From positions 36,147 to 100,146 of IMG/VR virus record IMGVR_UViG_3300042870_001427: a DNA stretch of 64,000 nucleotides. One strand, written 5' to 3'. The notes under the pieces are model-generated. The model saw nothing but the letters and a program-made list of their open reading frames with translations, was not told where the DNA came from and searched no databases. Shown here in pieces: positions 2,590 to 22,034 of this stretch. Made by a program: the position numbers and the translations under genes. Each line of letters begins with the position of its first letter. Position 1 is the first letter of the stretch. Source of the DNA: a virus. Taxonomy: Duplodnaviria > Heunggongvirae > Uroviricota > Caudoviricetes.

Positions 2590-3583
2590 TGAGAATGAGA
2601 TTTCCGCTAAGTCACAAGGCGGTACAGAGATGATGAAGCGTGGATTGGCCGAACGCCTTCCTAAAGAACTAACAGATGACTTTCAGATTATCTGTTCACG
2701 GGTTCGTGAAATAGAAGAAGAAAAGATTCGAGTATACTGGTTACATGATCTACCAGAAGATCCAGAAACCAACCACCTGACTGATGCAACAAGCCGGGAT
2801 AGGTTTCACAAGCACGTATTCTGCGGTCAATGGCAGTACTATCGTTACCAGCATATCCTAGGGATGCCGTACGATGAGAACAGTACAGTTATTGAGACTG
2901 CCATTGAGCCAATGCCAAGTGTGGTTAAGTCAAAGGATGAGATTAGACTAATCTATACATCAACCCCCCAGCGTGGACTGGCCCTATTGGTCCCTGTATT
3001 TGAAAAGCTAGCAGAAAAGTATGATAACATTTACCTAGATGTTTTCTCGAGCTTTAAGATCTATGGATGGGATCATGCCGACAAACAATTTGAACCTATC
3101 TTCGAACGCTGTCGTAACCATCCCCGTATTAACTATCATGCATACGCATCAAATGAGGTAGTAAGAGAGTCATTACTCAAAGCACACATTCATGCATACC
3201 CATCCATCTGGTTGGAATGTAATAGTCGTAGTGTTATCGAGGCTATGTCAGCTGGTGCCTTATGTGTACATCCTAACTACGGCGGTCTAATTGATACGTC
3301 TGGTGGTATGAACTTTATGTACCAAGGTAACAGTGATCCACAAAAGCATGTCAACACATTCTACCAGGTCATGGAGAATGCTATTGAGACCGTTAATACT
3401 GAACAGCTACAGACATACCTGCAATTGGTGAAGATGTATGCCGATAATAGATACAACTGGGGTAAGGTAACCCAGCAATGGGAAGACCTGCTTGTCGGTC
3501 TTAAGAAACAATACAGCACGGTTGAAAGCCGTAAACTAGCACCCTCAGGTCCTATCTTTTCCTATGATACCAACCGTCGATGA
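2579..3583 (+). CDS. glycosyltransferase, GT-B/GT4-like
   Basis: YTSTPQRGL; AYPSIWLECNSRSVIEAMSAG motif. Confidence 0.8.
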   Translation: MAFDENEISAKSQGGTEMMKRGLAERLPKELTDDFQIICSRVREIEEEKIRVYWLHDLPEDPETNHLTDATSRDRFHKHVFCGQWQYYRYQHILGMPYDENSTVIETAIEPMPSVVKSKDEIRLIYTSTPQRGLALLVPVFEKLAEKYDNIYLDVFSSFKIYGWDHADKQFEPIFERCRNHPRINYHAYASNEVVRESLLKAHIHAYPSIWLECNSRSVIEAMSAGALCVHPNYGGLIDTSGGMNFMYQGNSDPQKHVNTFYQVMENAIETVNTEQLQTYLQLVKMYADNRYNWGKVTQQWEDLLVGLKKQYSTVESRKLAPSGPIFSYDTNRR

Positions 3584-9015: not shown

Positions 9016-9090
9016 GCACCTATCGTCTATCGGTTAGGACGCTGCCCTTTCAAGGCGGAAAGAGGAGTTCGATTCTCCTTAGGTGTACCA
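9016..9090 (+). tRNA. tRNA-Glu(UUC)
   Basis: CTGCC-CTTTCAA-GGCGG; cloverleaf; CCA. Confidence 0.93.
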
Positions 9091-9200
9091 TATTAGAATA
9101 CATTTCAGGTTGAGTTAGATTCGCGGTCTAACTATTTGGGAAGAAAGACGGTGGAGATATCTGCCAAACACTTCTAAGATACGAAGTGTGTTCTAATATG
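9089..9200 (+). ncRNA. post-CCA long-stem element, family II copy 1
   Basis: 18-bp terminal stem CATATTAGAATACATTTC/GAAGTGTGTTCTAATATG. Confidence 0.6.
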
Positions 9201-9205
9201 ATAAT

Positions 9206-9281
9206 GTAGGTGTGACCCGAAAGGCTAGGGAGCAGATTGCAAATCTGTTATATGCAGGTTCAACTCCTGTCACCTACTCCA
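9206..9281 (+). tRNA. tRNA-Cys(GCA)
   Basis: GCAGA-TTGCAAA-TCTGT; U73; CCA. Confidence 0.92.
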
Positions 9282-19661: not shown

Positions 19662-19686
19662 AAATATGGTATCTTTTGGAGATACC

Positions 19687-20103
19687 ATGCAACAGTTCAG
19701 AGATTTTTTAACAGAAGCAATGAAGCAAACTAAACTGCCTGAGCCAAAGAAGGAGGCGTCAGGCAAGCCTAAAGTAATGAGCGGTAAAGAAACAATGGAG
19801 CATTTTCCGCGCCCGACGATGGATGCAGTGATGAAACATCCACTATATCAACGTCACATTGCAGGAGCTGAACATAGAGGGTTTGCACATTCTGTTAATA
19901 AATCTTCTGTAGATAATAAATATGATACACATATTGTACATGCTGTAACAGGTGGTACTGGTATCCGTCACAGAATTGACTTTCATATTGGGTTAAGTGG
20001 TCGCAAGGTAACTCATACCGAGCATTTAATTAACAAAGATAATGAAAAGTATCCCGAAGGTCATCCAGCGGCTGGCCAAGTGAAGTGGAAACATATATCA
20101 TAA
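19687..20103 (+). CDS. probable internal head protein (capsid-targeting-like N-terminus)
   Basis: MQQFRDFLTEA resembles the T4 CTS MKTYQEFIAE; ATAAATA late-promoter-like site at ~19660; RBS GGAG. Confidence 0.55.
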   Translation: MQQFRDFLTEAMKQTKLPEPKKEASGKPKVMSGKETMEHFPRPTMDAVMKHPLYQRHIAGAEHRGFAHSVNKSSVDNKYDTHIVHAVTGGTGIRHRIDFHIGLSGRKVTHTEHLINKDNEKYPEGHPAAGQVKWKHIS

Positions 20104-20105
20104 GA

Positions 20106-20510
20106 GTTATTGCTGTATGAAGCAAAGAGAAAAATGTCCTGGACGGGGGTGCGAATCCCCCCAGGTCCACCATAAAGGTTTTAAGTGGAAAATAAACTCA
20201 AGGAATTGCAAGAAAACTTAGCTAAAGATTTAGTTAAATGCGAAGTCCGTGAGGGAATAACACTTACAGAAGAGAACTTGGAAAAGATTTCAGAAACTTA
20301 CTCCAAAGTGTATGATATCATTACAGAGATAAAATCTTTATGATGGGCCTGACCTAGATTCGACAGGGCAAAGAGTAACAGAGTGGACAGCACATCAGAG
20401 AAGATGTTAAAACTAAAACCACGTAAACGCAAACGACGAACAGTTCGCATTAGCAGCCTAAACGCTGCTTAGGGTTTCGGTAGGTTTCCTCGTAACAGAA
20501 TAACCTACCA
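20106..20510 (+). ncRNA. ssrA: two-piece (circularly permuted) tmRNA
   Basis: Acceptor piece ends CAGGTCC-A-CCA (20172); coding piece starts GGGCCTG (20345) with G3:U70; tag ANDEQFALAA* at 20429-20461. Confidence 0.92.
20185..20343 (+). CDS. 52 aa ORF inside the tmRNA intervening segment
   Basis: AAAGG RBS, GTG start; VENKLKELQENLAKDLVKCEVREGITLTEENLEKISETYSKVYDIITEIKSL. Confidence 0.5.
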   Translation: MENKLKELQENLAKDLVKCEVREGITLTEENLEKISETYSKVYDIITEIKSL

Positions 20511-20532: not shown

Positions 20533-21075
20533 TTGAAGAAGATCATTAGTGCAACTTTGGTTGCTTTGTCATGCGCAGCATCTGCTGCAGATTATTTTAG
20601 CGTTGATATTGATTCGGTTAACGATCAAGTATCTGGTGCACGTAGCACCGCACAATACATTCGCGCTGGTAAGGAACTTGTTGGCATTCAAATGGGTGTA
20701 CAGGGACGTACTGCTATTTCCCAAGCCGGTGGAATGCTTAGTAGCCTAGAAGTAACTGGTGGTAAGAACATCGGACCTTTCACACCCTTTGTTGGTGTTG
20801 GCTTTGATAACGGCGCAAACGGTGCACGGAATGCCGATTACAAATACGGTTTGGTTGGTGCAACAGCAGGCATGAAAGCTGGTCCAGGTTTTGCATTGGC
20901 CGGTGTTAAGACCCGTCTTGGTACTACAGCAGCAGTTGAGACCAAGCAAACGGTTGTATTCGGTACATACAGTGTTCCAGTTGCCAAAAACGTTGCAGTT
21001 AACTTGAATGCAAGCAAGAGCTATCAGGATATTCAAGAGAACGCATTCGGCCTTGGAGTCGGAATTAGCTTCTAA
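20533..21075 (+). CDS. outer-membrane beta-barrel-like protein
   Basis: Signal peptide MKKIISATLVALSCAASAA; alternating strands; C-terminal GVGISF. Confidence 0.75.
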   Translation: MKKIISATLVALSCAASAADYFSVDIDSVNDQVSGARSTAQYIRAGKELVGIQMGVQGRTAISQAGGMLSSLEVTGGKNIGPFTPFVGVGFDNGANGARNADYKYGLVGATAGMKAGPGFALAGVKTRLGTTAAVETKQTVVFGTYSVPVAKNVAVNLNASKSYQDIQENAFGLGVGISF

Positions 21076-21464: not shown

Positions 21465-22034
21465 ATGTACGAAGAATACATTGAGAATGCAATGTTCATT
21501 ATTTTAGCATTCATCAAAGCTTTATTCATTCTACTCTTAGGCTACTTTATCTACACCTGCATGTCATGGGCTGTAGGAAGAAGTGTCTATCAATATAACA
21601 CCACCTACTCAACCCCAACCCAGGTGACGTTAAAAGAGCGTGAAAGACAATTACAATGTCTTACTCAGAACATTTATTGGGAGGCAGCTAACGAGCCCTT
21701 CGAAGGCAAGGTGGCAGTAGCCCAGGTAACCCTCAACAGAGCTAAACACGATAAGTTTCCTAATGATGTTTGTAAGGTAGTATACCAGAAGAATATTTTT
21801 TATGAGAAAGTGATCTGCCAATTCTCATGGTATTGTGAGAACAATTACAAGATCAAACCTGTATACAAACCCATGTACGAAGAATCTGAGGCAGTAGCCA
21901 AGAAGGTTCTATTAGAGGGATTCAGGTTAGATGGATTGAAGGAGGCATTATACTATCATGCCGATTACGTTAATCCAAAATGGCGTAAAGAGAAAATTAC
22001 TACCATTGGTCGTCACATCTTCTATAAGGAATAA
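21465..22034 (+). CDS. SleB/Hydrolase_2 cell wall hydrolase
   Basis: CLTQNIYWEAANEPFEGKVAVAQVTLNR, QFSW, YYHADYV.PKW, IGRHIFY. Confidence 0.9.
   Translation: MYEEYIENAMFIILAFIKALFILLLGYFIYTCMSWAVGRSVYQYNTTYSTPTQVTLKERERQLQCLTQNIYWEAANEPFEGKVAVAQVTLNRAKHDKFPNDVCKVVYQKNIFYEKVICQFSWYCENNYKIKPVYKPMYEESEAVAKKVLLEGFRLDGLKEALYYHADYVNPKWRKEKITTIGRHIFYKE

Follow-up and report, generated by a model that had tools for sequence, protein, structure and literature searches.

Two-piece tmRNA genes are established, and copies in phages have been reported. For the betaproteobacterial lineage they are attributed to Keiler, Shapiro and Williams (2000) and Sharkady and Williams (2004), as cited in PMC9004378. 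Among phages, the Methylophilales phage Melnitz was reported with a two-piece tmRNA (PMC9004378). The tmRNA database paper of 2025 flags one tRNA gene and one repetitive element in intervening segments (IVSs) as unusual. It mentions open reading frames (ORFs) only for group I introns and no protein genes in IVSs (PMC11915505). These introns, some with homing-endonuclease genes, occupy the T-loop of tmRNA genes (PMC11915505). An ORF in an excised segment is also described for the 23S rRNA of Coxiella burnetii. [quoted passage not shown] No account of a protein-coding spacer turned up in full-text searches on tmRNA intervening segments or sequences and on small proteins in connection with phage tmRNA. 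Stable RNAs and messages are known to share transcripts in other settings: tRNA-punctuated mitochondrial transcripts release mRNAs by RNase P and RNase Z, and SgrS/SgrT and RNAIII/hld are dual-function RNAs. The protein-coding spacer described here is a variant on the known two-piece tmRNA genes.

The window, which is the whole stretch of 64,000 nucleotides that was analysed, comes from an IMG/VR virus record of 164 kb with a completeness rating of 96%. The phage has 28 tRNA genes according to ARAGORN, and similar proteins occur in Methylophilales phage Melnitz and in other T4-like myophages. The locus belongs to an uncultured T4-like freshwater phage. Its features are as follows.

19666-20103, + strand: upstream CDS in the same direction, 145 aa, without a Pfam family; followed after 3-8 nt by the tmRNA
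20106-20172, + strand: tmRNA acceptor piece with the 5' strand of the joining helix, T-arm, 3' strand of the acceptor stem, A20169 and CCA 20170-20172 (Rfam, ARAGORN, sequence)
20171-20183, + strand: 5' arm of the closing stem, with the last two CCA bases and the Shine-Dalgarno-like AAGG at 20175-20178 (sequence, MFE fold, covariation)
20173-20344, + strand: IVS, 172 nt, between CCA and G+1; not part of the mature tmRNA and shown as an insertion by the Rfam alignment
20185-20343, + strand: gene of an acidic protein of 52 aa with two predicted helices; starts with GTG and stops with TGA (ORF list, dN/dS, homologous clusters, AlphaFold)
20330-20342, + strand: 3' arm of the closing stem, encoding the last residues of the protein and holding the first two bases of the TGA stop (20341-20343)
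20345-20510, + strand: tmRNA coding piece with the 5' strand of the acceptor stem (G1 G2 G3), tag 20429-20461 and terminal hairpin 20479-20509 (Rfam, ARAGORN, sequence)
20533-21075, + strand: downstream CDS in the same direction, 180 aa, with a signal-peptide-like N-terminus and an AAGGAG Shine-Dalgarno, no Pfam family; starts about 23 nt after the tmRNA

The Rfam covariance model RF04321 (tmRNA_permuted) matched positions 20111-20461 with 111.6 bits against a cut-off of 47. ARAGORN also called a permuted tmRNA, with the tag ANDEQFALAA at 20429-20458 and the stop codon TAA at 20459-20461. Both results support the permuted two-piece tmRNA with the acceptor piece first, which an earlier note had read from the letters of this DNA. 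The T-arm, the 3' acceptor strand and the CCA lie upstream, the 5' acceptor strand and the tag frame downstream. As in the Rfam alignment, GGGCCUG (20345-20351) pairs with CAGGUCC (20162-20168). The G3.U70 pair, the mark of alanine acceptors, is present as G20347 opposite T20166. The tag frame is intact and has an ALAA-type end followed by the stop. The 5' end of the acceptor piece is uncertain, with the Rfam match beginning at 20110/20111. As the CCA ends at 20172 and the coding piece begins with G20345, the IVS comprises 20173-20344, which confirms the length of 172 nt given in the earlier note. Among the older Rfam clade models, the window tmRNA is closest to the betaproteobacterial type. 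It reaches 70.2 bits on RF01850 (beta_tmRNA), under the cut-off of 84; kin with a short IVS reach 110-152 bits on this model. Judged by covariance scores, G3.U70, CCA and the intact ALAA tag, the tmRNA gene looks functional. No SmpB gene was found in the phage record, so that the phage would have to rely on host SmpB.

Scans near the tmRNA yielded nothing convincing for a promoter of its own, a terminator or a T4 late promoter. Together with the close co-directional CDSs, this indicates that the tmRNA is probably cut from a polycistronic transcript. The CDS at window positions 21465-22034, about 1 kb downstream of the tmRNA, matches the cell-wall hydrolase domain PF07486 at 92.8 bits. In the relative L183, the tmRNA is followed by a porin-like gene.

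Related loci were collected with an exact 32-nt T-arm word, which was found in at least 119 viral contigs, and were pooled with the loci found by the peptide. The sample comprised at least 127 phage tmRNA loci with both boundaries and at least 87 distinct IVSs, and the frequencies describe one tmRNA clade only. In genome contigs, the scan with the phage T-arm word identified no host tmRNA and hit only two MAG contigs of 20-23 kb (L159 and L160). These GTDB MAG contigs, binned in Bacteroidota, carry a phage-type beta tmRNA and, in L160, also tRNAs. Both probably stem from phages and were mis-binned into bacterial MAGs.

The IVS is closed by an inverted repeat of 13 bp including one G.U pair (20171-20183 and 20330-20342). 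It had been noticed in the earlier reading of the DNA and is upheld by the sequence, the MFE fold and covariation. In the MFE fold, the closing stem and the acceptor stem form an almost continuous helix in which the CCA is buried. The Shine-Dalgarno sequence and the GTG start are sequestered in the closing stem. The stem was found throughout the 87 distinct IVSs among the matches listed. Across 76 IVSs among the matches listed, pairing amounted to 83-99% at positions 2-11 after the CCA and to 76% at position 1; in the shuffled-partner control, 44-94% paired. In these 76 IVSs, the alternatives GC, CG, AU and UA occurred at many of the 11 stem positions, which represents many compensatory changes. 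The last four bases of the spacer are TGAT in 72 of the 87 distinct IVSs among the matches listed. They pair with ACCA, with one A.C mismatch, and this pairing supplies a stop codon at the spacer end. The same kind of stem closes non-coding IVSs and is therefore no hallmark of coding spacers.

Stems of 18-25 bp also start within the CCA of tRNA-Glu, tRNA-Lys and tRNA-Leu of the same phage (CCATA...TATGG type). They are located at window positions 9080-9210, 10750-10860, 11358-11520 and 13705-13760 and have structured, non-coding interiors. Their construction, like that of the tmRNA closing helix, suggests a common processing or insulating element in the tRNA region.

The 52-codon ORF fills the IVS almost exactly. 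AAGG precedes the GTG by 6 nt, and the TGA lies within the 3' arm, 1 nt before the coding piece. The Shine-Dalgarno sequence of the window ORF is weak (AAGG) and its start is GTG. ORF, ribosome-binding site and the coordinates 20185-20343 thus stand as first described. In 1000 shuffles of the IVS, an ORF of such length appeared about once (P about 0.001). Comparison of the window with its nearest relative (L006) revealed 19 differing sites in a 43-codon core, 16 of them at codon position 3. The differences were 15 synonymous and 4 non-synonymous ones, giving a dN/dS of about 0.04. Other pairs in the 52-aa family had values of 0.02-0.2, so that the dN/dS check advised in the earlier note revealed purifying selection. 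The codon alignment consisted of 19 distinct DNA variants from viral contigs, and the sole indel was an in-frame one of two codons (6 nt). Frame disruption in homologous spacers, which would speak against a coding spacer, was not seen: they keep the frame and differ mostly by synonymous changes. The excess of third-position changes and the low dN/dS argue for a gene; a chance frame or a constraint on the RNA only would not give such a pattern. By this substitution pattern, the ORF at 20185-20343 is a real, selected protein gene.

The peptide scan of viral contigs detected 33 loci with 49-94% identity. A metagenome protein search retrieved 35 homologous clusters, nearly all of 52 residues. Eighteen residues are invariant in the family. 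AlphaFold predicted helices at residues 2-21 and 29-51 with a mean pLDDT of 78. These two predicted helices fit the helix character proposed in the earlier note. Pfam provided no family above the cut-off for the peptide, with PRD at 17 bits below cut-off, and no nuclease domain in the ORF. The peptide had no match to PHROG families, and its predicted structure had no Foldseek match among PDB structures. The ESM Atlas contained just unnamed viral clusters at 0.82-0.83, below the lead threshold. Neither the locus nor the peptide had a match in 50,697 isolated-phage records (blastn, tblastn); the 52-aa family is thus known only from metagenomes.

The spacers of related phages differ widely. Lengths of the 87 distinct IVSs among the matches listed range from 25 to 703 nt. 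Short spacers are non-coding hairpins, and most spacers from about 84 nt upwards contain an ORF, again among the matches listed. In these longer spacers the ORF begins 9-24 nt beyond the CCA and terminates 1 or 12-13 nt ahead of G+1. A sense ORF covers at least 75% of the segment in 20 of the 35 distinct IVS types of at least 80 nt among the matches listed, an antisense ORF in one (Wilcoxon P=2e-7). A Shine-Dalgarno sequence is present in the first 10 nt of 32/34 coding IVSs versus 8/52 others (P=1e-13, among the matches listed). The matches listed encode 23 distinct cargo proteins. Pfam matches were obtained for a CxxCxxCC zinc/iron-chelating domain protein (26.6 bits, cut-off 23) and for a GNAT acetyltransferase, the latter above cut-off on two models. 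Other cargo families with variants have a dN/dS of 0.05-0.27, indicating purifying selection.

The two tmRNAs nearest to that of the window among the matches listed, with 96% identical flanks, have unrelated spacers of 61 and 76 nt, and one of them has the same downstream gene as the window. The cassette of the window occurs in tmRNAs with 87-91% identical flanks. Spacer content is thus uncoupled from the tmRNA, which marks the cargo as accessory and mobile. It presumably moves by recombination in the conserved tmRNA halves. As far as these sequence comparisons reach, the IVS is an exchangeable cargo slot in related phages.

Two groups of cargo ORFs have common traits. Five spacer ORFs (L071, L040, L117, L073 and L059) encode single-transmembrane-like peptides of 23-35 residues, with a predicted character reminiscent of small membrane toxins or holin-like modulators. 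Larger cargo proteins of 101-151 aa (L052, L116, L152, L098, L029 and L033) have a common N-terminus, MRI(N/K/T)E(I/L), and differ in the remainder. This N-terminus may be a shared 5' recombination junction of cassettes.

The 52-aa gene is not confined to spacers of one tmRNA type. It is located inside spacers of a different tmRNA subtype in L022-L026 and L186. As a free-standing gene it abuts the 5' end of the tmRNA in L020, L031, L037, L182 and L183, and it lies 0.4-2.8 kb upstream in L028-L030 and L033. The copies at 0.4-2.8 kb have a C-terminus that differs from that of the window protein, whose last residues are set by the closing helix through its 3' arm. IVS copies have AAGG or AAGGA 5-6 nt before GTG or ATG; the free-standing copies L020 and L021 have a GAGGAG Shine-Dalgarno. 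The family is genetically tied to the phage tmRNA gene, being in the spacer, abutting the 5' end or at most 2.8 kb upstream. This tight linkage could be mere local synteny in T4-like genomes. In L018 (1500-1800) and L019, the 52-aa gene is part of a decayed copy of the acceptor 3' end, spacer and coding-piece 5' start, just upstream of an intact tmRNA. L016 (2890-3170) lacks the acceptor piece, and its ORF comes after an unrelated gene. These arrangements look like traces of cassette movement or duplication. The free-standing homologues L028, L032 and L037 have, at about 2985-3000 / 1360-1375, a T4-late-promoter-like motif a few nt before the ATG. It reads TATAAATA or is near-identical; the L028 version is AATAAATA.

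A cultured example is Melnitz. The closing helix recurs in its spacer, which also contains an ORF preceded by a GGAG Shine-Dalgarno sequence. The ORF is annotated neither in the GenBank record nor in PMC9004378, which give the tmRNA only; the word 'intervening' is absent from PMC9004378. The Melnitz-type peptide is basic and unrelated to the 52-aa family. It is kept in 18 marine viral contigs, with a dN/dS of 0.09-0.37 over the first 35 codons. These substitution rates characterise the Melnitz IVS ORF as a selected gene. In Melnitz and one 98-nt IVS type, the ORF ends 39-45 nt inside the mature coding piece; in several of the marine contigs the overrun is 40-45 nt.

The explanation that we regard as likely for the whole is a working-looking two-piece tmRNA with a spacer that serves as a cargo slot, holds a genuine gene for an acidic 52-aa helix-loop-helix protein and would be translated on the nascent transcript. 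The IVS would be removed during tmRNA maturation, and its cargo would be dispensable for the tmRNA. The conserved helix bounding the IVS continues the acceptor stem, and through it the leader of the coding piece pairs with the CCA end. Ribosomes may load onto the polycistronic nascent transcript before the 3' arm exists and translate the ORF. Transcription yields the 5' arm with the Shine-Dalgarno sequence about 150 nt ahead of the 3' arm, so that a ribosome could load first and hold the helix open until termination. The helix may then close, and RNase P and 3'-end trimming would free both tmRNA pieces.

The mini-mRNA proposed in the earlier note would act after processing. RNase P cleavage at G20345 and 3' maturation at the CCA would free a stem-closed, nuclease-resistant spacer, and this RNA would be the chief message for the 52-aa protein. 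A precedent exists in mitochondria, where mRNAs are released by tRNA punctuation. In its favour, many unrelated cargo ORFs fit the IVS almost exactly, with starts 9-13 nt after the CCA and stops 1 or 12-13 nt before G+1. Against it, the same helix would bury the Shine-Dalgarno sequence, start and stop of the released RNA. The Shine-Dalgarno sequence begins 2-3 nt after the CCA and so would survive the CCA cut; the stop codon, 1 nt from the 3' end, would create a near non-stop situation. Paired ends could shield the RNA from exonucleases. However, the same kind of stem closes non-coding IVSs and follows ordinary tRNAs, so that mRNA stability is not what it evolved for. Where an ORF ends within the coding piece, as in Melnitz and the 98-nt IVS type, an excised spacer would lack a stop codon. 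Such overrunning ORFs in some relatives fit translation of the unprocessed transcript at least as well. We consider the excised mini-mRNA rather unlikely as the main template; it is possible, and less well supported than translation on the nascent or unprocessed transcript.

A joint reading of protein function and spacer fate is doubtful. The 52-aa protein would be an accessory factor of the phage tmRNA, for example modulating host SmpB, ribosome loading or the fate of tagged proteins, and its placement in the precursor would tie the amount of protein to tmRNA output. The stem-closed spacer, once excised, may also last as a mini-mRNA with the stop 1 nt from the 3' end, where termination would compete with rescue by its own tmRNA.

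Very improbable is a purely regulatory translation, in which the peptide sequence is irrelevant and translating the spacer delays or gates tmRNA folding or processing in the manner of a leader peptide. Start and stop lie in the two helix arms, so that a translating ribosome necessarily keeps the helix open, and ORFs of unrelated sequence occupy the same position. Yet the amino acids are under strong purifying selection (dN/dS 0.04-0.2, 18 invariant residues), and this selection on the protein sequence makes a role without a product unlikely. The same protein is also kept as a free-standing gene outside the IVS, some cargo proteins have recognisable enzyme or metal-binding domains, and short spacers without coding content suffice in close relatives.

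That the ORF arose by chance in an A+T-rich spacer, or that the tmRNA is a pseudogene split by an inserted gene, is hardly credible: the GTG start, the weak Shine-Dalgarno sequence and the beta_tmRNA score under cut-off (70 vs 84 bits) are outweighed by the rarity of such ORFs in shuffles (P about 0.001), the codon-position bias and family conservation, the RF04321 score of 111.6 bits, the 87-96% conservation of both tmRNA pieces across loci with differing spacers, and the spacer that a permuted tmRNA has by design, where an insertion leaves the mature RNA uninterrupted.

The layout has consequences for annotation. tmRNA genes are annotated as pure RNA genes, and protein genes nested in their spacers are therefore systematically missed, as the unannotated ORF of Melnitz illustrates. 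In abundant aquatic phages, the 'discarded' part of a stable-RNA precursor can offer accessory genes a site that is heritable and exchangeable. The helix recognised by tRNA-processing enzymes contains translation signals. This raises the question of how translation and stable-RNA maturation share one transcript, which can be addressed because Melnitz is cultured and has the same arrangement. A small-protein family that accompanies phage tmRNA genes may help to explain why phages carry a tmRNA. The locus is of interest to the fields of trans-translation, RNA processing and phage genome plasticity.

Compared with known systems, the betaproteobacterial permuted tmRNA (RF01850, RF04321) shares with the window the order of acceptor piece, IVS and coding piece, the T-arm, G3.U70, the encoded CCA and an ALAA-type tag. 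Removal of the IVS by tRNA-processing enzymes would be a further likeness. In contrast, the spacer of the Rfam beta consensus has just a few tens of nt, that of the window is 172 nt long and protein-coding, and spacer content varies between otherwise similar phage tmRNA genes. Melnitz and related marine myophages are likewise T4-like aquatic phages with a two-piece tmRNA embedded in a gene array (PMC9004378), and they too have a conserved spacer ORF. Their tmRNA belongs to another sub-lineage, however, and the Melnitz ORF often runs into the mature coding piece. Group I introns of tmRNA genes also place a protein gene inside sequence that is absent from the mature tmRNA. They self-splice, carry selfish nuclease genes and reside in one-piece tmRNA genes, whereas the phage IVS would be removed by ordinary end-processing. 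The Rfam scans of the window found no intron family that would point to a group I intron or ribozyme.

tRNA-punctuated transcripts and dual-function RNAs resemble the locus in that one transcript gives rise to a stable structured RNA and a message, and tRNA-like structures can set mRNA ends. The phage message differs in lying inside the acceptor helix of the tRNA-like domain itself, and its release as an mRNA is putative here. By analogy, the nearest counterpart of the coding tmRNA spacer is the 23S rRNA IVS of Coxiella. The analogy does not extend to an S23p-type identity, as the host RNA is a tmRNA and the peptide has no Pfam family above cut-off. In both, an ORF lies within part of a stable-RNA precursor that is cut out with the flanks left unligated, a removal that is predicted for the phage IVS. 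The Coxiella IVS (PMC4990558) is located in rRNA helix 45 and has one ORF family, whereas the phage tmRNA IVSs hold many unrelated cargo genes with good ribosome-binding sites.
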